Notes under the pieces: model-generated
Database searches by the model: none
What the model saw: only the letters and a program-made list of their open reading frames with translations
Told to the model about the DNA's origin: nothing
Shown here: one piece after another, positions 22,024 through 42,479 of the stretch
Layout: the number at the start of each line of letters is the position of its first letter
Numbering within the stretch: the stretch's first letter is position 1
Made by a program: the position numbers and the translations under genes
Assembly (NCBI GenBank): GCA_044892525.1
Contig: CM097887.1
Coordinates: forward strand, 80,082,397-80,146,396
Origin: Schmidtea polychroa
Taxonomy: Eukaryota
Length of the DNA stretch: 64,000 nucleotides
Direction of reading: 5' to 3'

Positions 22024-25000
22024 ATGATTCTAAATCTAAGAAGTTACGGATTACTTTTATTTCTGTTTTGTTACCATCTGGTGAATTGTCGTAAATATAT
22101 TTTGTTCCTTGTTTTTTAATGTTAAACTGTTATAGAAAATGTTAATTTGGCTTTATCGAAACCTACATACACGGTTCCATTGGACGACCCGACCATAACT
22201 CCTGTTATGATGAATGACGGCGTTGTGGACTCTAACTGTGCGTTGTTTTACGGACAGATGATGTACGTAATAATAGATTTGCAAGTTGTCACTCAAGTCA
22301 ACTCAATAAAAGTTTATAATACTTTTTACGAAGGTGACTTTGTTATTGTTTTAATATTGAAACTTTTATTATAATCACAAATTAGCATATTACTTGTCGC
22401 TGTTTGAGTTGTCCGTGACGAACAATTGGCGATCGTGCAATGCCGAAAATTTATACTCAACCCCAGCTTGTTCTGGTTCAGTGATTCCGACATCCACAAA
22501 AAATTTAATGATGTTTAACACTACTGGTTCGTGTTCTGGCAGATTTGTCATTTTCAGATTGAAAACTATTTCCAATTCGATGTGGTTTAAGATTTGTGAG
22601 TTTCAAGTTTATGGAGTTCCGACTACAAATTTGGCGCCTATAGATGAAGGAAGTACTTGCCAGCCATTTCCAGCAAGTAATATCTGATTCTTTTGTCATT
22701 TGTATATAAAAATTTTCATCAATTTTCATAACAAATTTGACTGCTATTTTAATCTACTTACTATTGATAGTAGTTAATCACGTTTTACAGCGAGTAAATC
22801 GCTTACAAATCAAGCCGTATACGAAACTTATATGTACATTCTAATAACGAAAGTGTGAAAAGATTTAAATAATTCATTTGATGTTTCTAATTCAAAACAA
22901 AAACACCTTTTTCTTTTATTATAAAGCTTTATAAAAATGAGAAATTTAATGAACTAATCGCAAATTTTATACTATAAATACTATATAATCAAACTATATA
23001 AATACTAATATAATCAAACATTAAATATTTAATAATAATAATTAAAATATAAAATTAACATAATAATATTAAAATAATAATATTAAATGTCAAGGTCACA
23101 CTTATAAATGAAAAATTATAGAAGTTAATAAGTTAATAATAAATAATTAATAATAAAAATAATAAATAATGAACTTTATTCTTAATTTTAATTTATTATA
23201 TTTTAAATTTAAATTTTTTTTTATGTTTATATTTTCATATTCAGTTGATAAATTTATAAATGTATTTTTATTTTATTAATCAAATTTTATTGAAATTTTA
23301 TCGAATTATCAGTAAAAGACTTGTATTATTTTTTATCATTGAACTTTGTTTCACTTTCTTTTTTCCTTATTTTTTTCAATATTTATGTTGAATATAATGT
23401 GAAATAGTGATATTTAGTTAGAAAAGAAATGAAGACGAAGGAAATTTCCTTAAAATATTTTTTGTTTTCCTTTAATATAATTCTTGATTCAATGACGTCT
23501 GTTGATTGTATATTAACACATTTTAATAGATGCGCTCAAACAATGTTGGAAAAACCCAAGACAAAAAAGAATTAATAAAGAAATTTAATTTAAAGAGGCT
23601 TCCTGTTATTTTTAATGTTATTAATTATATATGGAAATAAATGATTTCAAATCATCTTATTTGTATAAAAACTTTCAATATTAACTGACGTTCTGGTTTT
23701 AAAAAAAGTGTTCTAATTTGTAAATTAATAAAAAAAAGTCATATTTTGTATAATGCCCCAAATATTTATTATACAAATGCATTTTTTTCAACTCTCATCC
23801 CCCTAAAAAAATTGTCTGCTTGGTAAAAAAAATATTTTTGGCCCCCTGGAAAAATTTCTGTGGACGCGCATGCTATGATGGATTATGGTTGGATGAAAGA
23901 ATAAACGAAACATCTTATTTTTGATTTATAATTTGATGCAGGTAGCAACATACTTCTCAATAAACCAATTTACTTATCCAATGAATATTATCAAGAAAAC
24001 CTAAATGATGGAGTGTACGAAAGCTCTGACGTATGGACGTATTGCTATTACTCCTCATTCGACATGGAGCAAAGTGTATTGATAGACATGAAAGACACCT
24101 ATAAGTTAAGTCTTTTTAGAATTTGGAACAGTTTAGATATTTACCAATGTAAGAAATTCTGTTTAAACAATGAAAATTGACTTTAAATTAATTAGACGGA
24201 ACTGACTATTCGATCAATGTATCAGTCGGGACCACTTTTAAGATTGAGACTATGAATAGTGATTTACAAAACTTTACTCCGATTAAAACAAATGCCAAAA
24301 TTGTCGGTCCAACAATAGAAGCTAACCTGACGAATCAAAATGTTATTGGCCGATATATTTATATAGAAAGCCAAAATAATAACAATGATTATTTTACTCT
24401 CTGTGAAGTGGAAGCGACTGGAACTTTATATGCCGGCTCTCCAAAACCCGTCATTCTCTCCCAGCCGGTTCCAGATATAACAGCATCAAATCTGGTAAGC
24501 TTACTTTTTAAAAATTCACAAATAATTTTACTTTCTGATCTTTTCTTTCATTTTAGACGATGGCCCCAGCAATTCGGTCTGGCGTATTGAAAGTATTAAT
24601 TGACGCATACAGCAGTGGCGTTCTTTTTACCAAAAACTGTGAACCGGTTCTTTGGGATAGCGACTCATATTCTTCATTTGCTATTTCCTGCAAATATTAT
24701 TCCGGGAGAGTCATGTTATTTGGGAAATCAGACTTCTTTGGATCTCTGTTAAATAATCCTGTCAACTCTGCTTTTAAGTCCAACGTATATAAATTTCTGT
24801 CTCCATATGGATTGAAAGCCAAGGTTATAAGCCAAGTAAACATTAATTCTTCATCCATAGGGAACATTGTGTTCATGGATATATCTAAATCAATTTCATC
24901 ACAACTACAAACAATTCTTTTGTCGAAATTGAAGAATGGATATGTCTCTCTTGTTCTAGAAACGACTTATTGGGCTGAATTATTCTATACATATTACCGT

Positions 25001-26746
25001 CCAAATTATGATTTTATACTTAAAGAATTATCGGTTGATTTTAACACTAGCACCATTTCATCAGTCTCGAAATATATTGTCCTTACTAATAATGACTATA
25101 ATAGCATGTTTATTAATACAGAATGGAGTCTTCAACGAATACTAATGAATGACACTCAATTTCTTACATATGGAGAAAGGTTATTTACCATGCTTAACAA
25201 TTTTCAGAGTTACATGGTCAATTCAAGCTTGATAACCCCTTATCTCGTATCTATTTATCATAAATACTTTGCATTCATAGAATACAACTGTCCTTCTACC
25301 ATGGTACCTCTACCTTTGGGAACTATGCAGACCTATTTCTTTACATTCAACCAGTTACTTTTGAGCCCGTTACTAGTAAACAGTGGATTCAAATCTCCAT
25401 GTGTCAGTTATTATCCCGGAGATTTCTCGAATAATGCCAACATCATTAAGATAAATCCATCTTTGTCAATTACTGGAACTATTGCTGGAGAGTATCATTC
25501 AACCGGTCTATATTTAGCAGCTGGAGATACTCTTCAATACACCGTCATTAATCAAACCGGATGTTGGGATGTTTCAGTGGGTTGTCAAAAGGTTGGACTG
25601 AGTCCTGCTAGGAATGTTAGAGATATATATCGAATGCCTTACATTTCTCTCAATAAATTATGCATTGGAAGTTCAGGAAGTGTGTTTTCCCCTTTTGGGG
25701 GTTTAATATGGATTCGTAATCAACAAGCAAATTCATCCATAAATATTCAAATAACGAATGTTGTCCAAAGTCCATTTTTTAATTTATTAGACCCTAATGG
25801 TAGATCTATTTGGGAAAGTACTAGAACTACTAGTCAAGGACTATACGCTGAACTTCAGGGGAATCATATATCTATTTGCGTTCCAAGTGAGGTGGTGCGA
25901 AATTACAGTTTTGATTACTTGGTTAACCTTTTCAATACTTACTGGGATAGAATATTCCACATAAACAGTCAAATGATAGTCAAGGATTCTCTTCAAATTA
26001 AGAAAAACAGAATTGTTTTTGACATACAAACACCATATTATGCAGTGTTAAGTGGATATCCCATAATATTGACCTCTAACTTTTATAATGACACCTTCAA
26101 TATCAATTATATTTCTACCGTAGGATCCTGGGGCGTTCTCCATGAAATTGGACATACATTCCAGGAAAGTATTATGTTTTTCACAGGTGCTAAAGAGGTA
26201 ACAGTAAACATTTTTGTTCTTTTCAATTATGACACTATATGGAGCTGGAATGTAACAAATCCAAACTCAAGGTTACTTAGTTCAACAAGCATTGAAACTG
26301 CCGGAAATATTCTATCTCAAACGGTTGACTATAGCCTGTGGCAATCCGATAATTTCTTTGCTCTTGAAATCTTTGGAGAGTTTGCCTATCAGTTTGGTTG
26401 GGGCTTTTACCAACAATTTTTCAATATAATGCGAAATCAAGCTGCTTTGCCAACCGCCAATCAAGACATAATTGACTTTTATGCTCTCAAATTTTCATCT
26501 TTATTAAATTTAAATGTGAAGCCCGTCTTTGATTTCTGGGGTCTCCCAGTCAGTACCAATGCATCGAATTCTTTATCAAATCTAGTTTGCTTCTTTCCGG
26601 CTGATAAATTTGTTAATATCAGTCCTGTGAGGGTCGCACTGATTCTAGCAACATACAATAATGCATGTGTCAAAACTTCGCAATCATTCTGGAGTTTTCC
26701 ATTCCAACCACCAGTTGCAAGGCCTAATGATATCGTGACATTTTAA
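22024..26746 (+). CDS. Signal peptide + two F-type-lectin/discoidin-like domains + TCAF-like/M60 zinc metallopeptidase, 1083 aa, 6 exons
   Basis: join(22024..22090,22136..22333,22386..22676,23942..24148,24196..24494,24557..26746), GT-AG and frame-consistent (3252 nt). Hydrophobic N-terminus GLLLFLFCYHLVNC; NLALSKP..MNDG..C..IDL..KICEFQVYG and NILLNKP..NDG..C..IDM..GRYIYI..TLCEVEATG; M60 motifs HSTGLYLAAG, SPFGGLI, WGVLHEIGH, KEVTVNI. Confidence 0.85.
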
Positions 26747-27215
26747 TTTGAATTTTGAATAAATATTTCTGTTGCTATTTTCTAGATTTTATTTATATTT
26801 ATGTTAACCTAAATTTATAAAGTTTCATTACTTCAATACAAAAGGTAATACCGACATATTTTCTAATTTATTCTTAAACCCTTGATCAGTCATTTCGAGA
26901 TTTCAGTGTACAATAAATCATAAAATAGCGACTTAAAATATGACCATAAAATTAGAAAAGCGAACAATGATAAAAGACATTATCAAAAAGCAAACCGAAA
27001 TGTTTATTTGGCGAGCAATAATGGAAAGCGGTTGTGGGGCAGCAACCAATCAAATGAAAGAAATATCAAGAAACAACCAATCGAATCAAATCAAATGTTG
27101 AAGAATATGGGAATCGTCCAGTTATACAGTATCTGAAAAGAATTGCGCATAATATCAACCTTTATTATGGATTGGCAACAATTTGAAAAGTTATAATTTT
27201 TTTGATCGCATTGTT

Positions 27216-27458
27216 AGTAGTGGGGATATATCCCTCACGACCACAGGCCTCCCACTGTTTTCATGTTTTATGGCTATTTTACCCCAAAAAACGTACAAAA
27301 AAACACTAAAAACCCTTAAAAACGCACATTTTTTATTTTGCTCTATTTCGCAAAATTTAAAAAATATGGATTTAAGTCTACAAAACGGAGAAAAATGCCG
27401 ATAAAGCTATGAAAAGCGTATATCGGCCTGCGGTCGTGAGGGATATATCCCCACTACT
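27216..27458 (+). repeat. Left terminal inverted repeat, itself bounded by an internal inverted copy of its first 34 nt
   Basis: 27216-27249 is the reverse complement of 27425-27458 with one mismatch; contains the palindrome GGGATATATCCC. Confidence 0.92.
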
Positions 27459-27471
27459 CGGAGGAACTATA

Positions 27472-27587
27472 GGTCTTGGTGAATACAATACTGGTGAATC
27501 CTATCTTGCGAATGCGGTCTTGGTGAATACAGGTCTTGGTGCTACGGTCTTGGTGATTGCTGGTCTTGGTGATTGCTGGTCTTGGTG
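27472..27587 (+). repeat. Array of six exact GGTCTTGGTG 10-mers
   Basis: Copies start at 27472, 27516, 27532, 27546, 27562, 27578. Confidence 0.9.
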
Positions 27588-27705
27588 ATAAATAAAATAA
27601 AAAAATAAAAAAATAAAAAATAAAAATATAAAAAAATAAAAAATTAAAAAAATAAAAATAGAAAAATAGAAAACATAGGATCCAGTAAAAAAATTTATTC
27701 TAAAA

Positions 27706-30700
27706 ATGAACTGTAATATTTGCAATAAAGTTTTTAAAAATAAAACAGGATTAATTTCCCACTGTAAGTCGAAGGCTCACTTACTAAAAGAAAATAATCT
27801 TAATGACACAAATTCAAAACTCTGTCCTAAATGTAAAGGAAGATATCTACATTCAGGATATAATAAACATTTTGAAAATTGTATCGGGAGACTTAGAGAA
27901 GTATTTACATGCCCTCATTGCAACTTTTCAACAAAAATAAATTTCTACTATTTAAAACATTTAAAAGAACATATAAAAGAAAATCCCGAGGATGAGGAAT
28001 GTTATTCAGAAGGAGAACCTGATCATGTTGAAAGAGAAAAATACAACTGGGATAATTTTAATCATATAGATGAATTTAAATTAAAAATTAATGGACCTGC
28101 AACCCCTGGAGAATATATAAAGAGAAATAAAAAAAATATAAAAGATTCTTTCTGTGAGGCTTTAAAAAATTATAAACCGACAAGGTATAATGTTATAAAA
28201 TATAAAATCACAATAAAAGCAAAATACTGGAGAGCCCAAGGAGCCCAAGAAGACACAATTCCTTTAGATGTTGAAATCCCAATGCCTTTTAAATATTTAT
28301 TTTCAACTAGAGGATTTAATAAAAGCATCAAAGAAATAATTCAAGCAGTCGAAGCAAAACAAGAAGAGATTGAAAATGAATTAGGAGATTCAAACTTAGT
28401 ATTTCAATCCTTCCAATCTTTAGTGATTGATTATTGGAGGGGATTACCACCTAATCCTAAATTCTATATTCCTACACCCTTTAAATCTAAAAATGTTATA
28501 AATGTGCAGAATAAGGATAACAAATGTTTCATGTGGTCAATACTTGCACATTTACATCCTCAAACCGAAAACCCCCAAAGAGTTTCAAAATACAAAGAAT
28601 ATGAAAATGAATTAATATTCCCAGGAGGACCGGAAGGCCAAGGAGGATTCATGCATCCAATGAAACTAGAAGATATTCCAGAATTTGAAAAACTAAATAA
28701 TCTTAAACTTAATATTTATGAACATGTTAAAGGATGGGGACGTGGATGCAGAGATATTATTCCAATTTATATTTCTGATTATGAAATACAAGGCTATGAA
28801 GTACAAGAAGGCGATAGCACGAGGGAGATATATCTTTTAATCTTGGAACATGAAAATAATCAACATTATATTTTAATAAAAAACTTTCAAGCTTTTACAT
28901 CTCCAGAGAATCCAACTAGTGGAGGAGGAACATGTAAAAGATGTCTTCATTATTCAACAACTGAAAACTCCATGATTAAGCATGCAAGATTTTGTGAAAA
29001 GGATTCACCAGCTTTAATTAGAATGCCTACAGATCCCAGGATGTATTTTAAAAACTTTTCAAATTTATTACAAACATTAGGAGTAATTTACGGAGACTTT
29101 GAATCTATAAATCATAAACAAGATCTAGTCAAGCAATATTTAAAAATAATAGAAAAATATAAACTCATGGATGAATGGAAAGCCTCTAAACAGAAGAAGA
29201 AACCAACAAGGTTGAAGGCCTTTCTAAGAAAAAATAATAAACCCAATAGTGTTAAAAAAACTAAACAATTACCATCTGCTTATAAATTATTATTTAAAAG
29301 TAATTATCCCGAAGTCATAGAATCTAGAGAATATGCATTTCAAGGAACTTCAGAAGATGTCTTGGATCATTTTACTACAAGTATAAATGATCTAGAACAT
29401 GAAATATTTGAAGCATTAAAAACAAAGTATCCTCAAAATATTTCAGATCAACAATTAGAAGAATATAAAAATACTTTCAACTGTTGGATGTGCAAACAAG
29501 AGATCAATACAGGGAATCCAACTAATGATAAGGTTATAGATCACGATCATTTAAAAAGTGAAAATAATTATCGAGGAGCAGCCCATAGAGATTGCAATCT
29601 TAATTGTCATACCCCCAAATTTGTACCAGTTATATTTCATAATCTTTTTGGTTATGACGTACATCTATTTATAAAGCATCTAGCAGCAAATGCCAAAAAC
29701 TCTTTCAAGGTTATTGGCTTAACAAAGGAAAAATATAAATCACTTGAATATGGGAAATTAAAATTTATAGATTCCTTAAACTTTCTCCAAATGTCTTTAG
29801 ATGGCATAGCAAAAACATTAAAGCTAGAAGATTTTAAAATCACTCGGGAGTTCTTGGAAAAAAATAATATACCAGCAGAAGAATTTCCTACATGCTTGGC
29901 GAAAGGAATATATCCCTATGACTACGTTGACTCCTTTGAAAAATATAAGGAAACAAAATTACCAGAGAAAGAACACTTTTATTCACTACTTTCAAAATCT
30001 GGGATTACAGATAGTGAATATTCCCGAGCTCAGAAAATGTTTCACCTGTTTGACTGTAAAACTTTAGGAGATTATACAAGTATGTACTTGTCCCTAGATG
30101 TTTACATTCTAGCAGATTGCTTTGAGGAATTTACAAAGTCTTTTGTTCTTAAACCTTATAATTATATAACTGCACCCTCTTTAGCTTGGGATACTATGTT
30201 ATATACCATTTGGACTTCAGATCTTCCAGAATCTGATAAAATTATAGATCTTTTAACCGAGCAAGACATGTTTAATTTAATTAAAACAAACATTAGAGGA
30301 GGAGTATCCTCAGTAATGGGGAATAGAGAAATAAAAGCTAGAAATGCAATAACTACTAGCCGAATGCTCTCTGATGATCCATATATAAAACTTAACGATG
30401 AGGAACTAAAAGAAGTATTAGAAGGAATGAAAAATCCTCTATTTATACTTTATATAGATGCAACAGCTTTATATTCAGGAATTATGACTCAATATTTACC
30501 AATGAGTGACTTTCATGAAATATATCCTCCAGAATGCCCCTCAGAAGAAGAATGCCCCTTAAAAGACCTTATGAAAGAAATACGTTCAACTCCTAAAGAT
30601 TCTCCAATAGGATACTTTGTAGAATGTGACCTCGACTACCCAGATGATATAAAATCAGGAACAAGACATTTCCCTTTAGCTCCTATAAGAAGAAAGATTG

Positions 30701-32067
30701 ATATCAACGAACTTTCTGAATGGCAAATCTCACAAGATAAACCTCCAATAATGAAACTTCTTTGTGATCAAACAGATCGAACTTATTATCTTTGTCACTA
30801 TAGACTCCTCCAGTTTTATCTTTCACAAGGAATGATATTAAAAAAAGTTCATAGTGTCATAAGATTTAAACAAGCAGCATTCATGAAGACTTTCATCGAG
30901 GAGAACATTCGTTGTCGAAACATTGCAAAAAGAGGTAACCTTTTAAAAGACAATAATTATAAACTTTTAAACAATTCAGTCTTTGGGAAGACAATGGAGA
31001 ATGTTGATAAATATACTAATATAGAACTCTTGACAAATAGTGAAAAAGATATAGCCCGTTATAATCGTATGCTAGGAAAGCCTACATTTAAAAACGCACA
31101 AGTATTTTCTGAAAATCTTACTGCAGTAGAACTAAAGAATTATGAGAAAACATATAATAAACCAATATTTATTGGCTTTGCAATTTTAGAACTTTCAAAA
31201 TTACAAATGTATGAAACATATTATAACATCTTACAACCTATATATGGATCGAATATAGCAATGCATGCAATGGATACAGATTCAATGTTTTTAACAATAA
31301 GAACTCACGATTTACAAAGTGATATCTCTGAAAATCCTATACTTTCAAATTTAATAAATTCATCTGGAGAATTATTTTCGTTTAAAGATGAAAAACCTTT
31401 TACTCCTATAGAAAATGGAATATTTATTCGTGCTAAACAATATTCATATGAAACATTTACAAACCCTGAATTTGAAGAACATACATTTATATTTAAAACC
31501 CCAGAAACAGAAGAAAGCATTACACATAGATATCCTATATTCCCTAGAGCTGAAGAACCCGTAAAGGATAACAGATGTAAAGGAATTCAGAGATGTGTAG
31601 CAAAGAAACTTTCTCATCAAGATTATATAGATACATTGAATCCAAATCATAAAGATAAAATTGATGAAATACATCAACTTAAAAGTGAAAAGCATGATAT
31701 TTACTTGATAGAATCCCAAAAAGTATCATTATCAAATTATGATGACAAAAGATTCATACTAAGTGATTTAAAGACAACTCTTCCTATAGGAAATAATTTA
31801 ATACCTATAATAAAAAATCTTGATAGATTGAATCAGTTATATGGTACAAAGATTACTGATCTTGATATTTATAATGTTGAAATCATTTATCCTGAGAGAA
31901 TTGAGAAACCTTTATATTCTCAAGTTTTTAATCCTATATGTTTAGAACTTAAATATTTTAATACTGATCCTGAATATATAAAAGGTCTAAGTGATAAAGA
32001 ATTTAAAGATCATAAAGAGGTTCTAAAAACTAATTTCGAAAAGTTAACATCAGATTCTATCAAATGA
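27706..32067 (+). CDS. polB: Protein-primed family B DNA polymerase with N-terminal zinc fingers and an inserted endonuclease VII-like zinc module, 1453 aa
   Basis: Exo I IYGDFES, Exo II FHNLFGYD, FIDSLNF, KGIYPYDY, Exo III YLSLDV; Pol A YIDATALYS, Pol B KLLNNSVFGK, Pol C MDTDS, KGI, NYDDKR; CWMC..DHDH..YRGAAHRDCN. Confidence 0.96.
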   Translation: MNCNICNKVFKNKTGLISHCKSKAHLLKENNLNDTNSKLCPKCKGRYLHSGYNKHFENCIGRLREVFTCPHCNFSTKINFYYLKHLKEHIKENPEDEECYSEGEPDHVEREKYNWDNFNHIDEFKLKINGPATPGEYIKRNKKNIKDSFCEALKNYKPTRYNVIKYKITIKAKYWRAQGAQEDTIPLDVEIPMPFKYLFSTRGFNKSIKEIIQAVEAKQEEIENELGDSNLVFQSFQSLVIDYWRGLPPNPKFYIPTPFKSKNVINVQNKDNKCFMWSILAHLHPQTENPQRVSKYKEYENELIFPGGPEGQGGFMHPMKLEDIPEFEKLNNLKLNIYEHVKGWGRGCRDIIPIYISDYEIQGYEVQEGDSTREIYLLILEHENNQHYILIKNFQAFTSPENPTSGGGTCKRCLHYSTTENSMIKHARFCEKDSPALIRMPTDPRMYFKNFSNLLQTLGVIYGDFESINHKQDLVKQYLKIIEKYKLMDEWKASKQKKKPTRLKAFLRKNNKPNSVKKTKQLPSAYKLLFKSNYPEVIESREYAFQGTSEDVLDHFTTSINDLEHEIFEALKTKYPQNISDQQLEEYKNTFNCWMCKQEINTGNPTNDKVIDHDHLKSENNYRGAAHRDCNLNCHTPKFVPVIFHNLFGYDVHLFIKHLAANAKNSFKVIGLTKEKYKSLEYGKLKFIDSLNFLQMSLDGIAKTLKLEDFKITREFLEKNNIPAEEFPTCLAKGIYPYDYVDSFEKYKETKLPEKEHFYSLLSKSGITDSEYSRAQKMFHLFDCKTLGDYTSMYLSLDVYILADCFEEFTKSFVLKPYNYITAPSLAWDTMLYTIWTSDLPESDKIIDLLTEQDMFNLIKTNIRGGVSSVMGNREIKARNAITTSRMLSDDPYIKLNDEELKEVLEGMKNPLFILYIDATALYSGIMTQYLPMSDFHEIYPPECPSEEECPLKDLMKEIRSTPKDSPIGYFVECDLDYPDDIKSGTRHFPLAPIRRKIDINELSEWQISQDKPPIMKLLCDQTDRTYYLCHYRLLQFYLSQGMILKKVHSVIRFKQAAFMKTFIEENIRCRNIAKRGNLLKDNNYKLLNNSVFGKTMENVDKYTNIELLTNSEKDIARYNRMLGKPTFKNAQVFSENLTAVELKNYEKTYNKPIFIGFAILELSKLQMYETYYNILQPIYGSNIAMHAMDTDSMFLTIRTHDLQSDISENPILSNLINSSGELFSFKDEKPFTPIENGIFIRAKQYSYETFTNPEFEEHTFIFKTPETEESITHRYPIFPRAEEPVKDNRCKGIQRCVAKKLSHQDYIDTLNPNHKDKIDEIHQLKSEKHDIYLIESQKVSLSNYDDKRFILSDLKTTLPIGNNLIPIIKNLDRLNQLYGTKITDLDIYNVEIIYPERIEKPLYSQVFNPICLELKYFNTDPEYIKGLSDKEFKDHKEVLKTNFEKLTSDSIK

Positions 32068-32141
32068 TTTTTTTCTTTTAAAAATGTCAACAATTAATTT
32101 AAGAGTGACAACATCAACCTTTTGAAGGGCAATAAATTTTT

Positions 32142-32777
32142 TTATGTATGATTCTTTAGCCACTTCTCTCGTTTAATTTTTTTAGAATATTCATTAGTTA
32201 TAACATTAGCACTTTTTAATCTATTAATATTATTTTTAATATCTTGTATTATTTGATTTGATTTCATTATTTCATCATCAGTTAAGATTCCATCTTCCAA
32301 AGCTTTTAATTGAAATAAAAATAATTTAGAGATTCCTAATTCTATTGATAAACAAACTTCACGATATAAACTTTTCTTTTTAGAAGTATAAGATAATGAA
32401 ACTATTTCAGTCAAGAAACCATCAGCTACAGAAATACTTCCAAGTATTACAGGTGCTATTGTTAAAACTGGTAAAGTTATGGGTAAAATAACTGTTAATA
32501 TTGCAGATGCAAATCCTTAAGAATAACCTATAATTTTTAAAACTGTATTCCCTTTATTCCATCTATTTTTAACCTTTTTATAATGCTTTAATAAATCTTG
32601 TAAATGTAAGGTTTCTGATTTAAATTCTTTTACTCTCATAATTTCAAGTTCTGTGGGAGCCGAGGCCTTGGAACCTTTGTGACCTTCGGAATAATATCCT
32701 GATGATCTCAATTCTGGAGGGACCTCTGGGTAAATTTTTTCTTCTCTTACTTCTTCCATCTTTTGGACTTTGTCCAT
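32142..32777 (-). pseudogene. Polinton membrane protein (possible GasderminX-type) split by one in-frame TAA at 32517-32519
   Basis: ORFs 32517-32777 and 32142-32414 are in the same frame; the interval reads GFASAILTVILPITLPVLTIAPVILGSISVADGFL (hydrophobic hairpin), followed by KALEDGILTDDE, a motif typical of this Polinton protein class. Confidence 0.7.
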
Positions 32778-32785
32778 TTTAATAA

Positions 32786-33796
32786 TTAAAAAAATAAGAC
32801 TTTATTCTTCTGAGCACCATCTGGCACCAATACTCGGATATCAAAAGAAACTCTTGTTGAGAGAATATCTTTATACAATTCCATCAATGCTTTACGAACT
32901 TCATCAACATCAACCTTTTTTTCATAAAATATTAAATCTATATATTGTACAAGTGTGCTTTTAAAAATAATATTCTTACTTTTAACTTTATGTAGTCCAT
33001 GTGAATGAGTATTAACATACCAATCTCCGTGTGGTAAATCATAACTAGTCATTATAACATCACCCTTTTCAAGCTTACTATTATAATCACATTTCACAAA
33101 CCATTTCATTCTTTCATTATCATCATCAAACAAAAAGAAATAAGGATCAATAATCTTTACAACCATAAAAACACTCCATTCTTTACTGTTTGTTGTTATT
33201 AAACTTGGTTCTATAAAATGTTTATATGTATGGGGTAATAATGTTTTATTCTGTTCTAATTCAGCAGCTCTTTTTCTAATACTATGTGTGGTGTTAATGT
33301 GTGTTCCATGAGACTCTAAATTTGAAATTCTTTTATTAAATGATGTAATCATCTTATTTATTATATTATATATTGTATTAAATTTAGTATTCATAATTTG
33401 TTTATCTTTAGAGTTTAATATACTAGTATTTAACTTTACAACTTGTTCAGTTAACAGACTTTGTAACTTGTCAAATTTATCATTAAATCGTTGTTCGATA
33501 TTATTAAGCTTTGATTCCATTGAATCAATTTTTGTTGTTAATGAACTTTCAATTCTTGTTGTTGTTAAATCAGTATATTTTTTAACACCATCTACATATT
33601 TCTTATTAACTGCATCAGCTTCATCAGTTGGAAAAGATAATTCTTTTATCTTGTGTCCATTTAAAATTAAATCACCCTTCATTGAATCACCTCTTTCATT
33701 AATATATTTATTTTCTGTTAAAGTTAATATTTCTTCTGTATTAAACCCTGTTTTTATTGTTCCACCACCTCTATTACATGGAATATAAGAACTCAT
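32786..33796 (-). CDS. Fibre/spike-like protein, 336 aa
   Basis: GDSMKGDLILNGHKIKELSFPTDEADAVNKKYVD fibre-neck-like motif, heptad-rich segment, distinct C-terminal domain; adjacent to penton. Confidence 0.55.
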   Translation of the reverse strand: MSSYIPCNRGGGTIKTGFNTEEILTLTENKYINERGDSMKGDLILNGHKIKELSFPTDEADAVNKKYVDGVKKYTDLTTTRIESSLTTKIDSMESKLNNIEQRFNDKFDKLQSLLTEQVVKLNTSILNSKDKQIMNTKFNTIYNIINKMITSFNKRISNLESHGTHINTTHSIRKRAAELEQNKTLLPHTYKHFIEPSLITTNSKEWSVFMVVKIIDPYFFLFDDDNERMKWFVKCDYNSKLEKGDVIMTSYDLPHGDWYVNTHSHGLHKVKSKNIIFKSTLVQYIDLIFYEKKVDVDEVRKALMELYKDILSTRVSFDIRVLVPDGAQKNKVLFF

Positions 33797-33833
33797 TTAT
33801 TAATAATTTAAAATGACATGTGGAACTTCGTAT

Positions 33834-34604
33834 TCAAACCTGTTTCAAATGTAAATACATTGAAATCTCTTCTCCATTAAAATCAATCAATTCTCCTTCT
33901 TGATTAAGAATTTTAAAATTAATATCCATTATATATTTTCTACATAAAGGTAAATAATTTGGAGGATTCATTCTTTCAACTATTTTATATCCCATAGGAA
34001 CTGTGTTTGAGGGAAAGGAATATAAAACATTTGTTTGTTTACCATTATTATAAGAACCTGTTATACAATCGCAATGAATATTTATTGTGTTTGTATTTAT
34101 TATTTTTATAATATTTTCTGATGTTATATTCTCAACTACAGGTGTGATATAATGGTTTCGTGTAAATCCTAAAATTGTTCTAAAGAAACTATTATTTTGA
34201 AAATGAATTCCTATATTCTCTAAAGTCATTATACATTTTGAAGTTGGTAAATCCATTTTAATTTTAATGACTCCATTTGTTTTTTTAGAAAGTATATTAT
34301 TTAAATCTTTTATCTCATAAGCTCCGGGTTCGATTGTTATTATAATCTTATCTGTAGATTTTGGGCTTATATAATAAAATATGTTATTATCTTTAGTTAT
34401 ATTAAAAATAGTATTATAAGCACAAAACCATAATAGTCCTAATTCATAATTTAAATTTTGATCTGATTTAATTGAATCTTGAAAGTTTATAGTAAAGTCT
34501 GATTCTTTTGAATTTATAGATAAAGTTCTTGAATATTTATCTGACATTATGTTTACCATTTTTTTTAAATTATCTTCCGGAAGGTTGCGAAGCTCCATTT
34601 TCAT
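33834..34604 (-). CDS. Minor capsid protein (penton), 256 aa
   Basis: IEPGAYEI, TILGF, NTINIHCDCITGSY, VLYSFP, YLPL, INFKILNQEGELIDFNGE motifs of Polinton pentons. Confidence 0.85.
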   Translation of the reverse strand: MKMELRNLPEDNLKKMVNIMSDKYSRTLSINSKESDFTINFQDSIKSDQNLNYELGLLWFCAYNTIFNITKDNNIFYYISPKSTDKIIITIEPGAYEIKDLNNILSKKTNGVIKIKMDLPTSKCIMTLENIGIHFQNNSFFRTILGFTRNHYITPVVENITSENIIKIINTNTINIHCDCITGSYNNGKQTNVLYSFPSNTVPMGYKIVERMNPPNYLPLCRKYIMDINFKILNQEGELIDFNGEEISMYLHLKQV

Positions 34605-35032
34605 AGTATAGATTTTAAATCATTATAAATTTCTTGGATTAAGGAAGTGAAACCTTCTCCTTTGGATTTATTCAATCTATACAAAACATATAAGCTTAAA
34701 ATACCACATATTTTAGTATTATTAGGTTGAACTTGTAAAGAATTAAAAGTGTAGTCCGAGAGATAGTCTTCAACTTCTTTAGTGGGTTTAATCCCAAAAG
34801 AATCAAAGTATATAGATTTTTTATATATACAAACCCAATGAGATCCTTTTTCATTTGAATTTTGATAATTTATAATGATATTCTTTGGAGTGTCTTCTTT
34901 CAGACTCGACAATTCATCATTCATTAATATTTTTATTTTTAAATTTAAATAATCTGCATAATCTTTTAAATCAAAATTTGTTTTTGTATTTATTCCAAAT
35001 GTTTTTAAAAAATCTAACATTGAAGGAGTCAT
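34601..35032 (-). CDS. Adenain-like cysteine protease, 143 aa
   Basis: IIN..GSHWV (His), YFDSFG (Asp), QVQ..ICG (Gln, Cys); stop overlaps penton start (ATGA). Confidence 0.9.
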   Translation of the reverse strand: MTPSMLDFLKTFGINTKTNFDLKDYADYLNLKIKILMNDELSSLKEDTPKNIIINYQNSNEKGSHWVCIYKKSIYFDSFGIKPTKEVEDYLSDYTFNSLQVQPNNTKICGILSLYVLYRLNKSKGEGFTSLIQEIYNDLKSIL

Positions 35033-35054
35033 TTTATATTTTATAACTTCGTAT

Positions 35055-35843
35055 TTATAACTTCGTATACTTATTAAATTTATCTTTTGAAATTATTCCT
35101 TGTTTTAATAATTCTTTAGAAATCTTTAAAATATCAGAATCTAAATTATTATGTCCTGCTTTTTTAGCTGCTAATAGTTTTCTTAATTCAATAAAAAGAT
35201 TGATTGGGTTTATCTCCTTACCCTTTCCCTGGCCCTGACCCTGGCCCTCTCCTTCTGTGACAATATCATTTTTATTTAAATATTTCTTTAAATCTTGAAT
35301 ATGTTTTGCTTTAGCACTACCATGTACTAATTCTATTAAATTTAAATATTTTTTAATTTCTAGAAGATCAACATTCTCTGAGGGATATCCACAAACTAAT
35401 CCATAAAAATCATCTGTAAATTCAAAATCTAGGTGTTTAGTATTATAAACATTTTGTGAATGAATACGTGATTTATTTTCTGAATTTAAATATAACAGAA
35501 AGTCATGTTTATTAATTGTTATTATTTGATATCCTTCAACATTAATATTAAATGTAGGTTTAATTGTTTTACTTAAACTCACATTAATTTTAGGATCAAG
35601 TATAAGAGGTTTTATATTTAAATCTTCCAACCATGGTAATTCTTTTAAATCTTGTTTATCTTCCAACTCTTTAAATTTTAAAACTTCTAACTCTTTTATG
35701 GCTTTAATTGTTGGTCCTTGTTGTTGTTGGATTACCTCATTTAATATTATAGATTCAGCGTGTTGAGTTGTATCTTTTTTATTATATTTATCTTGTTCTG
35801 ATTGTAATTTTTTTAAAAGTGCTAATCTTTCTTCATATACCAT
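35055..35843 (-). CDS. Conserved-type Polinton hypothetical protein, 262 aa
   Basis: C-terminal LRKLLAAKKAGHNN..ELLKQGII motif preceded by a GEGQGQGQGKG linker. Confidence 0.7.
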   Translation of the reverse strand: MVYEERLALLKKLQSEQDKYNKKDTTQHAESIILNEVIQQQQGPTIKAIKELEVLKFKELEDKQDLKELPWLEDLNIKPLILDPKINVSLSKTIKPTFNINVEGYQIITINKHDFLLYLNSENKSRIHSQNVYNTKHLDFEFTDDFYGLVCGYPSENVDLLEIKKYLNLIELVHGSAKAKHIQDLKKYLNKNDIVTEGEGQGQGQGKGKEINPINLFIELRKLLAAKKAGHNNLDSDILKISKELLKQGIISKDKFNKYTKL

Positions 35844-35865
35844 TTTAATGGTATTAAAAATGGTA

Positions 35866-36474
35866 TCATTTTGGTAAAGGATCCGTTGGAAAGGGCTTCA
35901 AGTATAAACCTTTACCATTTTTAATTTTACAAAGACATCCATTCTTTAAAGATTTACATATTTTTTTAAAATCATCTTTATCTTTTGAAGATAAAGATTC
36001 AGATGATGAAATTTGATTTTTTAAAAAATCATTTAAACCACGGCCTTTATAAGGATCAAGATAGAGACCTTTGCCCTGAGACTTTTGCCGACTCCCCTCA
36101 TATGGATTAAGATAGAGACCCTTTCCAACGGACACTCCCCCTTTAGCTTGCCCTACCTTCTTCATTGAATCGATTTCAGTTTGTAGTTTTTCTTTTTCTA
36201 GGTCTGTCTTTTGAGATTCTTTAGCTTTTTGAACTGTAGTTGCAATTCCTCCAGCTATTCCAGCAGCACCTGATAGTCCGGCAATGATTGCAGGTATTAA
36301 AGCAGCTAAAGGAAGAATACCTCCGGATTTGGAGGAACTCCCTATATGTTCTTTAACTTGTTCTTTTACATGTTTTCCAATAAAATATTTCTTACCATCA
36401 ATTACAACTGATTTATTTTTATTTGAATTTATTAATTCTTGCAAAGATTCCTCTGTAGGGTTTTGTGTTGTCAT
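35866..36474 (-). CDS. Gly-rich core/cement-like virion precursor protein, 202 aa
   Basis: SGGILPLAALIPAIIAGLSGAAGIAGG hydrophobic segment and three GKGLYL(N/D/K)P(Y/F) repeats. Confidence 0.7.
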   Translation of the reverse strand: MTTQNPTEESLQELINSNKNKSVVIDGKKYFIGKHVKEQVKEHIGSSSKSGGILPLAALIPAIIAGLSGAAGIAGGIATTVQKAKESQKTDLEKEKLQTEIDSMKKVGQAKGGVSVGKGLYLNPYEGSRQKSQGKGLYLDPYKGRGLNDFLKNQISSSESLSSKDKDDFKKICKSLKNGCLCKIKNGKGLYLKPFPTDPLPK

Positions 36475-36490
36475 TTTATAATAAATAAAA

Positions 36491-37270
36491 ATGGATACTT
36501 GGAAACCAATTTTAAATAGACATAAATCTAAATTTAATAATAAAGTATTTCCTGATAATTTTAGATGCTTAATTATTGGATCTTCTGGATGTGGAAAGAA
36601 TGTTCTTCTTATGAGAATGTTATTAGAAGATGGTTTTTTGGATTATAATAATTTAATCTTTTATTCTACAACCATTAACCAACCATTATTACAACTTTTG
36701 AAATGTGGATTTGAAAATAAATTAACTAAAAAAGCTATAATTGATATTTTTAAAAATCAACTTACATATCCCGAAGAGGTTTTTCATCCTTGTGATATGG
36801 TTGATTGGTACAAGGAAAAGATTTTAGAATCAGATATTAGTAATAAAAATGATTATATAGGGGATGGAATCCAGATCTTATTCTCTAATAAACCTGAAGA
36901 TGTTTTACATTGTGATTTACTTCCTAAAGATAAAAAGAATCTAGTTATATTTGATGATGTTGTTAACATGAAAAATCAAGAGATTCAAAAGAGTTACTTT
37001 ACACGAGGTAGACATAATAATTTTAATGTTATTTATATATCTCAAACATATTATGCTTTAGATAAAAACTCTATAAGAAATAATTCTAATTGTTTTATAT
37101 TTTTTAAATTAGACAAGCGTGATAAGAATATGATTTATAATGATTTATTTTCAAATGTTGAACCTGATAAGAATATGTTTGATATGTTTGTTGATAATCA
37201 TTGGAAAGAAAAATATAATTATATTTATTTGGATAGAGAAGAAGCTGAAATATGGAAAAGTTTGTTTTAG
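36491..37270 (+). CDS. A32/FtsK-like genome packaging ATPase, 259 aa
   Basis: Walker A IIGSSGCGKN (atypical N), Walker B LVIFDD, FTRGRHNN..IYISQ motif. Confidence 0.9.
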   Translation: MDTWKPILNRHKSKFNNKVFPDNFRCLIIGSSGCGKNVLLMRMLLEDGFLDYNNLIFYSTTINQPLLQLLKCGFENKLTKKAIIDIFKNQLTYPEEVFHPCDMVDWYKEKILESDISNKNDYIGDGIQILFSNKPEDVLHCDLLPKDKKNLVIFDDVVNMKNQEIQKSYFTRGRHNNFNVIYISQTYYALDKNSIRNNSNCFIFFKLDKRDKNMIYNDLFSNVEPDKNMFDMFVDNHWKEKYNYIYLDREEAEIWKSLF

Positions 37271-37281
37271 GGCTTGTCGAC

Positions 37282-38671
37282 TTAAAAATCTGTTTTCTGT
37301 AGTTCATTATTATAAAATCTACCTAATATTTTTTCATTATTTAAATCGATGATACCATATGTTATTGGAGTTGTATGATGTATTTTATTTATAATAAAAA
37401 TTTCATTTGTCCATTTTGCTGTGAATCCTTTTTCAAATTTATTTTTATATTTAAATATTCTTACGCGGTCACCAATTTTAAATTTTGGTTTTATAGGGGT
37501 TGTATCAACAATAACATCATTTTCAATATTTACCACTTTAACTGTTTCAGGATTCAAGGAAGCATTTAAAGGTGTTGATTTTATAGAACTATGTACATCA
37601 TTATTATATTCATTTACAATCTTTTGTAACAATTCATTGTTCCATTTTTGTTTTCCAATAGCAGTAAAATATTTCCACATTTTATTTTTTAATGTTCTAT
37701 TTAATCTTTCAACTACGACTGCTTTTCCTTCGTTTTCTGTTGAATATAATTTAATATCATTTTCATTTAAAAACTTTGTAAAAACTTTGTTATAAAATTC
37801 TGTTCCTTTATCACACCATAAATATTTTGGAATTCTTTGATATTCTTCAAATATATTTTCAAATGCTTCTGTAATAGAATATCCTGTTTTATTTTCTAAA
37901 CACCTTGCAAAAGCAAATCTTGTATATAAATCTATTACTGTTAAAATTATTTTATATTTTTCAGGGTCTGATGATTTGGGCATAAAGACTAAATCAGCAG
38001 ACCATGTTTGATCTTTTTCATGTACTTGAACTTTTAAATATTTTTTATTTTTTCTAAATTCATGGTGTAATTCGTTGGCATATTTTATTTGTGATTCTGT
38101 TGGGGTTTGTAAACTAGTCTTGGCTGTACTCTCGAGGGATCTTTCAATCTCTGCTTGTTCGATAATCTTTTTATTAGCAACATCTTTTGCTTTCCTAGGA
38201 AGTCCTGCTCCTATGAAAATCTTACCTTTCATTACTAATTTAACTAGAGCTCTTTGAATCTTTTCTTGGGTTGATGGATTTTGTATATTATTTAAATCAT
38301 GTATTAAATTCACATCTGCAACATGTCTATCTCTAAGATTTGTTGAATTGTAAGCAATATCATGTTTTAAAGCTGCTTGGTCGATTCTATTTATTGGTTC
38401 TTCTCCTTGTTTAGGATTATTATTTTCATCTAATCTAATATCTAATCTTGTTCCTGGCCCAGTATAATTGTGTTTAAATAAATGTCTTTCACCTGGATAT
38501 TTTTCTGTAGTAAAAGGTTTTAATATTGAAGATGTTGTTTTTGAAGATTGTAGATCACCTCCTGTTCGTGTAATATCGCCCCCTATATGTTTTTTTAGAT
38601 TTTAGATGACTTGCTTTATGGTGTTTTCTAACCCGACAATTACAAGTTTCACATTTCCAATATTTACTCAT
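37282..38671 (-). CDS. Zinc finger - parvovirus-type PLA2 - retroviral-type (rve) integrase fusion, about 462 aa; one extra base in a T7 run at 38590-38596
   Basis: Frame open from 38601 to 37282: HNYTGPGT..PINRIDQAALKHDIAY..RHVAD (PLA2), then WSADL, VIDLYTRF, WCDKGTEF, VERLNRTLK (DDE). ATG 38671 gives MSKYWKCETC..HLKSKK, which joins H-I-G-G if one A is removed (1390 nt = 463 codons + 1). Confidence 0.88.
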
Positions 38672-38700
38672 TTTAAAAGTTTTTTTATGGGGGAATCTAC

Positions 38701-39996
38701 TTATGAAGAATCTCCCCTAACATTTTCAATAATTGAAATCTTTCCACCATATAATTTCATTTCTATTTTCTTTTTTTCTAATATTAATGTATATACTTTA
38801 GCTTTAAAATTAGAATCCTTTGTTACATGAAGCGTAACATCAACATTATTTATGGCTAGGCGATCATCTTGGTCTGATACATTTATACAAAATATAGAAT
38901 ATAAATTTTTGAAATCTTCTAAACTTAATTGCGGTTCAACTTTGAAATCATAACATGTTTCAATATAATTTAGATATGGGAATATGTTTTCATTATTTTC
39001 AATATTAAATTCCATTCTATTTATTGGATAATAAGAACTATTTAATTGAATTTGGATTGTTTTTAAATTATCATCTCCAATCTTTTGAATAAATAGATTG
39101 TTATTTTTTTGGAAAGATGAATCTGTTTCTTTGAATCCAATCAAGATATATCTTGGTCGGTATGCTAAATTTGCTACCTTTATAGAATAAGTTGAGCCTT
39201 CTGTCATACTGAATTCACTACAGATTCTATTTAAATAATTTACATTTATAGATTTGTTGGAATTTAATCTTTCAAGGAGTTTGATTTCAGAATGTGGATT
39301 TAATGTCCATTCAGGTATATGCAATTCAAGTGTTGATAATTTTAATTTAGCTTTTGTATCTGCAGCTCCATAGAACAATCTTTTATCACCTTCTAGTCTA
39401 TTACAGATGAGTTCTATAAAAACATTATGGAGCACCCGGTTATAGTTTTGAAGGAATCCGAACAAGTGTTTTAATTCAAAATAACCTTCAAATTTTTTCA
39501 ACTTATAAAGTTCAACTCTTTTATAGTAAGCATAATTTATATCTAAACCATCTTTATCTAAATCCCCTTTATTAACATCAGGAATCCAACCTGTTAATTC
39601 ACCATATTCGTTTTTATAATCACAACCAGTCAAAATAAAATTTAACATTGTAGAATATACTCCTGGATGTAAAACAGTTTCAATTTCTGATGATCCTAGT
39701 TTTAATCTCATGTTGGAGAATAAATTTGGAAAGAAATTGTTTTCTAGGGTTATATCTTTGTTTGCTTCAATTTCTAATTCAATTTTATAATATAATTTGG
39801 CATTACAAATATCTATTGGGTTTGATGTTTGAAGAGATTGAAAAACTATATCACCCCTACGATTTAAGTTTGCAATAGATCCTGAAGTTGGCGAGATTTT
39901 TAAAATATCATTTTTCTTGATTTCATGAGTAAATTCTTTATTATAATCAAGATTTAATTTATTTTTTTCTTGAATTTTGAGATTTATATTATTCAT
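38701..39996 (-). CDS. Major capsid protein (double jelly-roll hexon-like), 431 aa
   Basis: NNFFPNLFSNMRLKLGSSEIE, ELKHLFGF, LELHIP, PRYILIGF, IQLNSSYYP, SIFCINVS motifs and size typical of Polinton MCPs. Confidence 0.88.
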   Translation of the reverse strand: MNNINLKIQEKNKLNLDYNKEFTHEIKKNDILKISPTSGSIANLNRRGDIVFQSLQTSNPIDICNAKLYYKIELEIEANKDITLENNFFPNLFSNMRLKLGSSEIETVLHPGVYSTMLNFILTGCDYKNEYGELTGWIPDVNKGDLDKDGLDINYAYYKRVELYKLKKFEGYFELKHLFGFLQNYNRVLHNVFIELICNRLEGDKRLFYGAADTKAKLKLSTLELHIPEWTLNPHSEIKLLERLNSNKSINVNYLNRICSEFSMTEGSTYSIKVANLAYRPRYILIGFKETDSSFQKNNNLFIQKIGDDNLKTIQIQLNSSYYPINRMEFNIENNENIFPYLNYIETCYDFKVEPQLSLEDFKNLYSIFCINVSDQDDRLAINNVDVTLHVTKDSNFKAKVYTLILEKKKIEMKLYGGKISIIENVRGDSS

Positions 39997-40043
39997 TTTT
40001 ATATATTAAAATTAATATATCCAATAAAAAAAATATTTATAAA

Positions 40044-40313
40044 ATGACTGACTTAATTGAAAGAATGAGAAATGAATTGAATGAAGTTAAACATAAGAGA
40101 ATGAAAAGAAGAGAAAAAGAACCATTAGAATATATCAAAGAGTTGATGGTAGAGAATGAAAACTATCGACATTTTTACATGAAAGCTGTAGAAGTTGCTG
40201 AGATAAGGTTAAAGAAAATGAAACAATTACGGGAAAGAGTTAAAGAACTTGAATCGATTATTTATAGTTGTAAAAATGACAAAATTTTGAAACCTGATAG
40301 CGCAGTGGGCTAG
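40044..40313 (+). CDS. Small basic coiled-coil hypothetical protein, 89 aa
   Basis: Divergent from MCP, TATAAAATG start context, helical charged sequence. Confidence 0.55.
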   Translation: MTDLIERMRNELNEVKHKRMKRREKEPLEYIKELMVENENYRHFYMKAVEVAEIRLKKMKQLRERVKELESIIYSCKNDKILKPDSAVG

Positions 40314-40372
40314 GCTGGCACAGTGGTTCAAATGGATAGTGGTTCAAATCACATCTGAGGTTAGTTTTTTTT
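40291..40372 (+). ncRNA. Candidate Pol III small RNA, copy 1 (tRNA/VA-RNA-like promoter)
   Basis: A box TAGCGCAGTGG 40298-40308, B box GGTTCAAATC 40341-40350, T8 terminator 40365-40372; AACCT/AGGTT terminal pairing. Confidence 0.5.
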
Positions 40373-41223: not shown

Positions 41224-41509
41224 AGTAGTGTGTTTATATCCCTAACGACCGCAAGCCGACAAACGTTTTTCATAGTTTTATCAGTATTTTTTTCCCCGTT
41301 TTATTAATATTTTTGTTGTTTTTTTAATATTTTTGTTGTTTTTTTTAAGTCTTTATTTTGAAACCAAAATGTCTTCAGAATAAAGAAATTAAAAGATATA
41401 GGTTTTTAGGGGTTTTAAGTGTTTTTTTTTACGTTTATGGGGGAAAAATAGGTATAAAACATGAAAACAGTGGGAGGCTTGTGGTCGTTAGGGATATATC
41501 CCCACTACT
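41224..41509 (-). repeat. Right terminal inverted repeat with internal inverted copy of the terminus
   Basis: 41224-41257 AGTAGTGTGTTTATATCCCTAACGACCGCAAGCC pairs with the element end; about 10 mismatches to the left TIR over the outer ~108 nt (hand count). Confidence 0.9.
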
Positions 41510-42479
41510 ATTGTTATTCTGCTCATCGCTTTAAGGGTCACTTTTTTATAGTAAATCTTTATTTTTGTTTCTTTGAATTTATCTCACGACTACTTTAAAT
41601 ATTCCTTAATTCCAAATTTAATCCCTTGAAATAAAAATAATTTTTTATTATTTCCAAAACATTTCCTTTCTACTGAGACTGTCAGCAAAGAATCACCTAT
41701 TTATGCCTGGAGTACATCAAAGACTTTACGCTTCCAGTAGTTTGATTTATAGAAAATTTAGTATTGAAAGCAGAAAAACCTAGGAGGTACTTCCGGCATA
41801 AATGGTGCTCATTCCTCTGGAGAAGTTTTCGTGAAGCAAAATGGTTGGGAAAAAATATAATGGTAAAAATATTTTTATTGAAAGAGATTTTTTTTGCGCG
41901 GAAGTGGAGGTTAATCTTATTTTATATTATATTCATGCAGGTAGCATAAATATTCTATCATTTGTTCGTTGATTAATTAATTTATTATCAAGTATTTGAA
42001 CTAATTAATTTGTATTTGTATAATTAGTTGTCAGTAATTATATTATTATATTCGTTTTTAAGTTTTCGTTTGCTACCTATCCATGCAGGTCAATCCAAAA
42101 ATATTGATTTTTAAATTTTTAATTATATTTTGTATTTAATTTAATTTTTAAATTTTAGTTAATTTTATCGAAGTATTATTAATTTGTATTCGAAAGTTGT
42201 GCATTAATATTTTATTTGCACTCATTAATGTAACTCCAATACTATTAACATAATTTGTTCCTATAAAATGAAAGCAGGTAATTTACTATTTTTATTACGT
42301 TTTATTTATTCAAAAAAATCAACCTTCAAAACATGGCTTTTGAAACTCTATATTTCACTCTTAATTTCAATATATTTTAGATATAATTATATTATCTCTT
42401 TAATCCGAATAAATAAATAAGAATTTATATTGAAATAAGGAAATAACACTAAATTTGACATATCAATATTTTTAAAATT

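Follow-up and report, generated by a model that had tools for sequence, protein, structure and literature searches.

Fold-back termini in a Maverick/Polinton element of Schmidtea polychroa: concerted change of outer and inner terminal copies at the left end and a possible local template for end repair

The window analysed in this work is a stretch of 64,000 nucleotides from Schmidtea polychroa (assembly GCA_044892525.1, contig CM097887.1, positions 80,082,397 to 80,146,396 of the forward strand), and positions 27216-41509 of it are occupied by a Maverick/Polinton element of about 14 kb, the features of which are listed in Table 1. The element possesses a 6-bp target site duplication (TSD; ATTGTT at each flank), terminal inverted repeats (TIRs) with (AGT)2//(ACT)2 ends, an rve integrase (PF00665), a packaging ATPase (PF04665), a double jelly-roll capsid protein (PF21738) and a family B DNA polymerase, which is probably of the protein-primed type, all of which are characteristics of Mavericks/Polintons. 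The identification of the polymerase is based upon Atlas look-alikes of the 1453-aa open reading frame (ORF), with scores of 0.95-0.97 and with PF03175 (DNA_pol_B_2) in 19-47% of their members, a match of lead-level evidence, and on sequence motifs which we take to be the catalytic motifs of a polymerase; searches of this ORF against Pfam, PHROG and PDB sequences gave no direct polymerase match. The two ORFs assigned as candidate minor capsid protein and candidate protease similarly gave no informative match in Pfam and PHROG, their sizes fit these two functions, and the second contains what is presumably an adenovirus-type cysteine protease motif. The phospholipase A2-like stretch shares the open frame of the integrase (439 aa from stop to stop) and lies upstream of its first ATG. 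The ORFs of the element are long and open. The left host-element junction is spanned with zero differences by one contig of the public run X2, which is possibly not independent of the assembly, and this junction is not an assembly artefact. Immediately to the left of the insertion, the host sequence contains an intronless ORF (24560-26746, forward strand) of 728 aa with Peptidase M60/enhancin domains.

Table 1. Features of the Maverick/Polinton element and its termini in the window (+, forward strand; -, reverse strand;., no strand)
Feature	Position	Strand	Evidence
Left TSD, ATTGTT	27210..27215	+	sequence
Left outer terminal motif (Lo), starts AGTAGT	27216..27249	+	sequence
Left inner inverted copy (Li), 33/34 identical to Lo, differs at 28	27425..27458	-	sequence
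Left fold-back unit, 243 nt, short spacer class, imperfect palindrome	27216..27458	.	z -10.4
Central AT-rich hairpin of left unit, approximate limits	27328..27365	.	predicted fold and sequence
Family B DNA polymerase, 1453 aa, N-terminal zinc finger	27706..32067	+	ORF; Atlas look-alikes
Candidate minor capsid protein	33834..34604	-	ORF; size and position only
Candidate adenovirus-type cysteine protease	34601..35032	-	ORF; presumed motif
A32-like packaging ATPase	36491..37270	+	Pfam PF04665, E 2.5e-8
Retroviral-type (rve) integrase	37282..38232	-	Pfam PF00665, E 1.3e-12
Phospholipase A2-like coding stretch	38233..38601	-	PF08398, E 2.4e-10
Double jelly-roll major capsid protein	38701..39996	-	Pfam PF21738, E 3e-27
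Right inner inverted copy (Ri), mismatched to Ro at 8, 10, 11, 28	41224..41257	+	
Right outer terminal motif (Ro), with left-end bases at 8/10/11 and Ri bases at 21/31	41476..41509	-	
Right fold-back unit, 286 nt, long spacer class	41224..41509	.	z -7.9
Right TSD, ATTGTT	41510..41515	+	sequence

The initial annotation of this region had reported that the terminal 34-mer at each end of the element is repeated in inverted form a short distance inside, and this is borne out by our analysis, with Li ending at 27458 and Ri starting at 41224. A pattern search of the genome for this motif gave 179 real matches, versus 0 for a reversed-pattern control. In DNA fold predictions, 0 of 200 shuffles were as good as the actual units, and each unit is predicted to be imperfectly palindromic over its full length, with a central hairpin, which extends beyond the 34-mer alone. 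The bases that had been singled out as diagnostic are also as described, viz. C and G at positions 21 and 31 of the motif in both left copies and A and A in both right copies, with position 28 being A in the outer copies and G in the inner copies; likewise, 10 differences are counted between the left and right ends over the outer 108 nt, where a difference of about 10% had been indicated. However, the grouping of the bases within each end, which positions 21 and 31 do show, does not extend to positions 8, 10 and 11, which had gone unreported and where Ro sides with the left end (Ro = Lo = Li) and Ri alone differs. In the window element, three motif sites are therefore grouped between the ends and two within the ends, and identity is seen at 33 of the 34 bases for the left pair (Lo/Li) and at 30 of the 34 for the right pair (Ro/Ri). 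Directly behind the left unit (27459-27590) there are short GGTCTTGGTG-type repeats, whose form varies among the left-end types.

The behaviour of these four copies was followed in other members of the family from the same genome. DNA and pattern searches of the genome, together with the retrieved partner ends, provided a family sample of 130 terminal units, in which 56 facing pairs were present (TSDs agreeing within 1 base in 51 of the 56), whereas 19 ends plus one further inner-only end were without a partner. Upon exclusion of 5 pairs with mismatched TSDs, 8 which did not consist of a left and a right end, 5 with duplicate flanks and 4 without an inner copy, 34 non-redundant TSD-matched elements were obtained. 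For the 34 positions of the motif in these 34 elements, which provide 34 x 34 site-instances that are not independent events, as the family copies are related and recombining, the base is the same in all four copies in 973 cases, Lo, Li and Ro agree against Ri in 73, the pattern is strictly within-end in 41, a single copy other than Ri is odd in 32, and the outer copies differ from the inner copies in 37. Of the latter, 34 are at position 28 and the remaining 3 are from one element, whose left end bears a right-type unit. A further possibility, that a nascent strand leaves the inner site and resumes copying at the opposite end of the same strand, predicts a crossed pattern and was rejected, this pattern being present in 0 site-instances.

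In the 118 site-instances where Li differs from Ri (34 elements), Lo is the same as Li in 111, but Ro is the same as Ri in only 48, so that the covariation within ends, for which an alignment of other copies had been proposed as a check, is observed for the left end and largely not for the right end. Mismatches between Lo and Li numbered 15 versus 94 in the permuted data. The six left haplotypes differ from each other at positions 8, 9, 10, 13, 17, 21, 23, 25, 26 and 31, and Lo and Li have the same base each time; in one of these haplotypes (C1:122945328), four linked private changes are present in both copies. As linkage alone cannot yield such shared changes, the left copies are copied onto each other, and it is concluded from the sequence comparisons that the left outer and inner copies evolve in concert. 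Position 28 does not take part in this, being A in all 130 outer copies and G in 118 of 119 inner copies. Outer-only variants at the left ends recur in several insertions (e.g. at position 24), and no recurrent inner-only variant within positions 1-27 was found among 46 left ends.

The right end shows a different pattern. Mismatches between Ro and Ri (83 observed versus 85 permuted) provide a comparison that is powerless, as Ri is near-invariant (identical in 32 of 34 elements), and those between Lo and Ro number 56 versus 97 permuted. The base G31 is found in Ro in 7 of the 18 elements whose left end has G31 and in 0 of the 16 elements whose left end lacks it. When the bases of Ro are read along the motif, they are left-type and then right-type in 13 of the 34 elements, all left-type in 9, all right-type in 9 and of other patterns in 3. 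These distributions indicate that left-type bases enter the right end from its tip, i.e. a polar transfer from left to right, and one right unit is of the left type over its outer ~100 nt. The long and short spacer classes are both found at left as well as right ends. The concerted change of the left end and the presence of left-type bases at the right tip together imply that both intra-end and between-end copying operate. Local correction at the right end is, in turn, rare or absent, since Ro agrees with Ri in only 48 of 118 cases and three right-tip mismatches persist in 19 elements. Hence, of the earlier proposal that diagnostic bases co-vary within an end rather than between ends, the first part is upheld by the concert of Lo and Li, but its second part is contradicted by the Lo-Ro covariation and the transfer at the tip.

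The left and right units of the 34 TSD-matched copies are 66-99% identical (median 83%), with identity of at least 95% in only 2 of 34, and Li differs from Ri in 33 of the 34 elements; the TIR in this family stops at about the unit. The suggestion that the asymmetry of the two ends predates integration is supported by these values. Left-right TIR divergence has been taken as a sign of insertion age in PMC12220804. As such divergence can predate integration (32 of 34 TSD-matched copies are less than 95% identical), caution is called for in this use.

The A/A state at positions 21 and 31 of the right end in the window had been regarded as evidence of local correction. However, the 286-nt right unit of the window is identical to that of another copy (G000:C2:98862596-98875188), in which the left end carries A at both 21 and 31 and agrees with the Ro of that copy. 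Furthermore, in comparison with 20 whole natural copies the nearest relative of the window element changes along the body, so that the window element is a mosaic; to one copy it shows no more than 2 mismatches in 500 nt for the initial 3 kb but 22-38 after that, and its right non-coding region has 88-90% similarity to the long TIR found in another lineage. With an identical right unit in a copy with an A/A left end and a mosaic body, reassortment explains the right A/A as well as local correction does, and these bases fit a reassorted right end. An origin of this locus by recombination of two subfamilies with symmetric TIRs is correct as regards the mosaic nature of this copy, but the difference between Li and Ri in 33 of 34 elements does not agree with symmetric parents, and the covariation at left ends is independent of it. 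Family copies are mosaic over the whole body, and the comparisons show that ends have been exchanged between copies by reassortment. The right non-coding region of the window contains a tandem duplication (40260-40749) with a period of 232 nt, and around it 19 of the 20 compared copies are strongly unlike the window or unalignable.

The Maverick load of this genome is very large, with 2527 capsid candidates, and 126 capsid matches were scored over the Pfam cut-off. From these 126, 30 loci outside the known ends of the family were picked for varied ORF and match length. Fold-back units numbering 40 were found at 25 of the 30 loci, using a threshold of at least 19 matches in 24 at which degenerate inner copies would be missed (32 of the 40 units match at 24/24), and for 2 of the 30 loci no terminus was found. 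The units represent 14 terminal types, one of which is that of the window family. Over the 20 bases of positions 8-27, the outer copy of a type agrees on average with 19.2 bases of its own inner copy and with 9.0 bases of the inner copy of another type. The matching begins exactly at base 1, is seen in 11-14 of the 14 types up to base 27 and falls to 5 of 14 at base 28, and the flanks past the inner copy differ; the A/G difference at position 28 also occurs in another terminal type, although the stem continues. The terminal sequences have diverged to about 45% identity among types, with the inner copy kept in 25 of 30 loci. Covariation within ends thus holds across the 14 terminal types as well. 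Among 15 facing pairs at these loci, 10 have exact TSDs and 9 of these 10 are at least 95% identical from left to right, which speaks against covariation within rather than between ends. In the tenth pair (L190+191), the ends are only 70% identical and each end is self-matched, and one long-TIR element (L200+201) keeps the inner copy. A search of metagenomes gave 34 loci, mostly short, of which one, a contig (L254:15-166) that shows one end only and whose capsid is 31% identical, has a fold-back end, with an AGTAGT start and, some 150 nt further in, a 22-nt inverted copy that is perfect. No relative of the window element was found in the viral contigs that were searched. On the basis of these comparisons, the fold-back is general among the sampled Mavericks of this genome, and wider than the window alone.

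In 3 of the 30 sampled loci, the TIRs are ~0.9-1.0 kb long and the inner copy is gone at both ends through different deletions. Use of two deletion queries yielded 60 loci, from which, due to the manner of their selection, no frequency is derivable, and all 58 of them for which a terminus was located are devoid of the inner copy; two junction types are present on 19 and 18 distinct flanks. Where facing pairs lack the inner copy at both ends, 11 of 14 are TSD-matched (two share one TSD, so that about 10 insertions are represented), and their first TIR blocks, of 0.5-1.5 kb, are 93-99.6% identical. Since long-TIR lineages without an inner copy have multiplied in this manner, the fold-back is not essential, and the idea that each end must fold upon itself as an obligatory origin is contradicted by lineages which continue to insert without it. 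The association of TIR length with loss of the inner copy is drawn from one related group of lineages. It would appear from these sequences that the fold-back, which can be lost, supplements the panhandle rather than replacing it.

The terminal unit had also been suggested to move alone as a mini-element; this is not supported, as 0 of 119 family units are flanked by a 6-bp TSD of their own. Among the 40 units from other loci, 2 have AT-rich flanks with one mismatch, both being ends of longer capsid-bearing stretches, and no solo unit was present. One candidate for a solo unit (L131, G000:C3:140160476-140160673), a 198-bp element with the TSD CAGGAG of which one copy was found, joins a right outer to a left outer end and was set aside as a deletion derivative. 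The terminal hairpins of parvoviruses, including AAV, can pair within themselves or with each other, a feature that is similar to what is proposed here, and hairpin transfer in these viruses yields flip and flop orientations. In contrast to these viruses, no inversion of the terminal unit is present among 130 units (position 28 is outer-type in 130/130 and inner-type in 118/119), which argues against a hairpin transfer of the parvovirus type, and no Rep-type gene is found among the Pfam matches of the window element. No strand-changing joints were seen among the public-run contigs listed, a source that consists of contigs only and is silent on free ends.

In the standard Maverick model, a single-stranded racket is formed by the two TIRs (PMC4196379; bioRxiv 10.64898/2026.07.28.741278), and direct evidence for a panhandle is described as lacking even for PRD1 and adenovirus in one of PMC4196379, PMC11886824 and bioRxiv 10.64898/2026.07.28.741278. 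The reading that we favour, with a probability of about 0.5, is that the inner copy is an optional local template for end repair, providing a second route beside the left-right panhandle. A single strand with four copies could pair in two ways, with its two ends joined as a panhandle or with each end folded back separately. At its 3' end, a strand undergoing excision or strand-displacement replication could anneal to the inner copy, at a distance of ~250 nt, or to its own 5' end, with the imperfect arms beyond base ~28 holding the register or serving as an anchor; the polymerase of the element would then, on occasion, restore a trimmed 3' tip by copying the partner to which it was annealed, and protein-primed initiation at the AGTAGT repeat would reset the exact terminus. 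Local repair of this kind would be of greatest importance for elements with a short or mismatched TIR, such as those of the window family. Such copying must be occasional, as mismatched states persist through many insertions. Refilling from the inner copy would account for the matching from base 1 to ~27 and the fixed outer/inner differences beyond, for the recurrence of outer-only but not inner-only variants at left ends, and for the disappearance of the inner copy from lineages in which a long panhandle suffices. The direction of copying, from inner to outer, is weakly suggested by the recurrent outer-only variants. However, position 31 co-varies within the left end while position 28, nearer to the tip, never does, which polar refilling alone fails to explain, and the refill model gives no account of where extension stops at the inner AGTAGT.

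A stronger form of the above reading, which is tentative and on balance doubtful, is that the inner copy is a master telomere template that rebuilds the last ~27 bases after excision or nibbling; each end would then be autonomous, ends of subfamilies could reassort freely, and overshooting would yield mirror-image as well as gene-less palindromic elements. It is unlikely that the matching is merely the outcome of neutral correction of an old terminal palindrome, with its arms perfected, to no function, by template switching of a host or element polymerase. Imperfect inverted repeats are known to become perfect through template switching (PMC3820800), and the repeated loss of the inner copy and the toleration of right-tip mismatches agree with this view; but the matching is limited to bases 1 to ~27 and stops at the fixed A/G difference at 28 even though the stem runs on past it, 25 of 30 loci have retained the inner copy despite the divergence of the termini to about 45% identity, and the distant metagenome element shares this design. 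It is also rather improbable that the inner copy is a second duplex binding site for the integrase, terminal protein or polymerase, or a hairpin recognised during excision from single-stranded host DNA, which is kept matched by selection and occasional conversion and not through refilling of the end. The sharp extent of ~27 bp fits a protein footprint and the covariation of position 31, past the fixed difference at 28, accords with it; however, selection alone gives neither identity at every base nor the four linked two-copy changes of C1:122945328, and lineages without the inner copy still transpose. The ratio of 22 to 4 between G-T wobble-type mismatches on the strand with the terminal 3' end and those of the opposite kind would likewise fit such a site, but constraint on the A/C-rich outer copy alone would produce such a bias too, and, being confounded by base composition and the relatedness of the types, the ratio was put aside. 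Lastly, an obligatory local origin, in which each end must self-fold to provide the duplex for an origin or an integrase site, with purely local correction, the panhandle being unneeded and the unit perhaps able to move alone, is highly improbable, for although the concerted change of left ends, the strong predicted folds of both units and the integration with matched TSDs of ends of 66-99% identity (median 83%), or of 70% at another locus, agree with it, as a general rule it is refuted by the inner-less lineages (58/58 located ends, with 11/14 pairs TSD-matched) and could survive for short-TIR families only, and the clear left-to-right transfer, the symmetry of 9 of 10 exact-TSD pairs elsewhere and the 0/119 solo units also stand against it.

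With regard to known systems, the window element resembles the Mavericks/Polintons described in PMC8097293 in its size (~14 kb), 6-bp TSD, (AGT)2//(ACT)2 ends (the end motif of the vertebrate Maverick set in that paper), PolB, rve integrase, ATPase and double jelly-roll capsid, and the panhandle model predicts a left-right homogenisation as seen in the window family. It differs in that the TIR here is an imperfect palindrome of ~200-320 nt in which the terminal ~27 bp have an inner counterpart that changes in concert with its own end, and in that the two TIRs of the family are only 66-99% identical. A spaced inner terminal copy, or its covariation, is not described for Mavericks in the open text of PMC8097293, PMC11296320, PMC4405056, PMC6431247, PMC8363768, PMC10748475 and PMC12220804 as covered here; Repbase entries and supplements, which lie outside this scope, could already note inner repeats. 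The nearest printed feature in the sources covered is the terminal palindromes of the Halocafeteria virophages/PLVs (bioRxiv 10.64898/2026.07.28.741278), where a self-complementary TIR extremity beside the TSD is proposed to form a replication hairpin. The virophage/PLV palindromes are tight (52 nt in one subtype, with a gap limit of 10 in the screen), occur preferentially where the replication genes are of non-pPolB types, and have been put forward as primers of replication, whereas here the arms are ~200-300 nt apart, the elements encode PolB and carry AGTAGT termini, flipped units are absent and covariation was put to the test. Some casposon TIRs also hold internal palindromes (PMC4046053).

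For the refill reading, a working analogy that implies no homology is provided by Tap of Streptomyces (PMC5449611), where a trimmed 3' end of a protein-capped linear replicon is restored by fold-back extension, a type of repair stated in that paper to be unreported for adenovirus or phi29. That system is bacterial and at most 4 nt are repaired on a 13-nt palindrome by a dedicated primase-polymerase, whereas the present case is drawn from sequence covariation among integrated copies. In adenovirus and PRD1 (PMC11886824), the ends of the displaced strand pair and restore ITR identity, which fits the polar left-to-right transfer, but the model described there has no inner inverted copy of the origin, and it predicts that outer copies equal outer and inner copies equal inner, a pattern found here in only 3 site-instances outside position 28.

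In the sources cited, the exit of Mavericks/Polintons from chromosomes and the regeneration of their ends are based on a model and not on tests. The present genome constitutes a natural experiment in this regard, as its many terminal types either have or lack an inner template, its TIRs may be short or long and its ends may or may not match, and the Maverick ends of this one genome record two separate copying routes. These ends also provide short, defined substrates for assays of end repair, priming and integrase cleavage.

Some TSD-flanked copies carry two left-type or two right-type ends, viz. G000:C1:80080842-80094695, C2:129080062-129095178 and C4:47748564-47754768, among them a mirror-ended 6.2-kb element that has four occurrences with the same flanks; as a lead, such mirror-ended copies would fit a replication that is prone to fold-back. 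Lastly, two neighbouring copies (G000:C2:129460886-129474639 and 129477848-129491847) have TSDs that are swapped as reverse complements of each other, a configuration suggestive of a post-insertion inversion through ectopic recombination.
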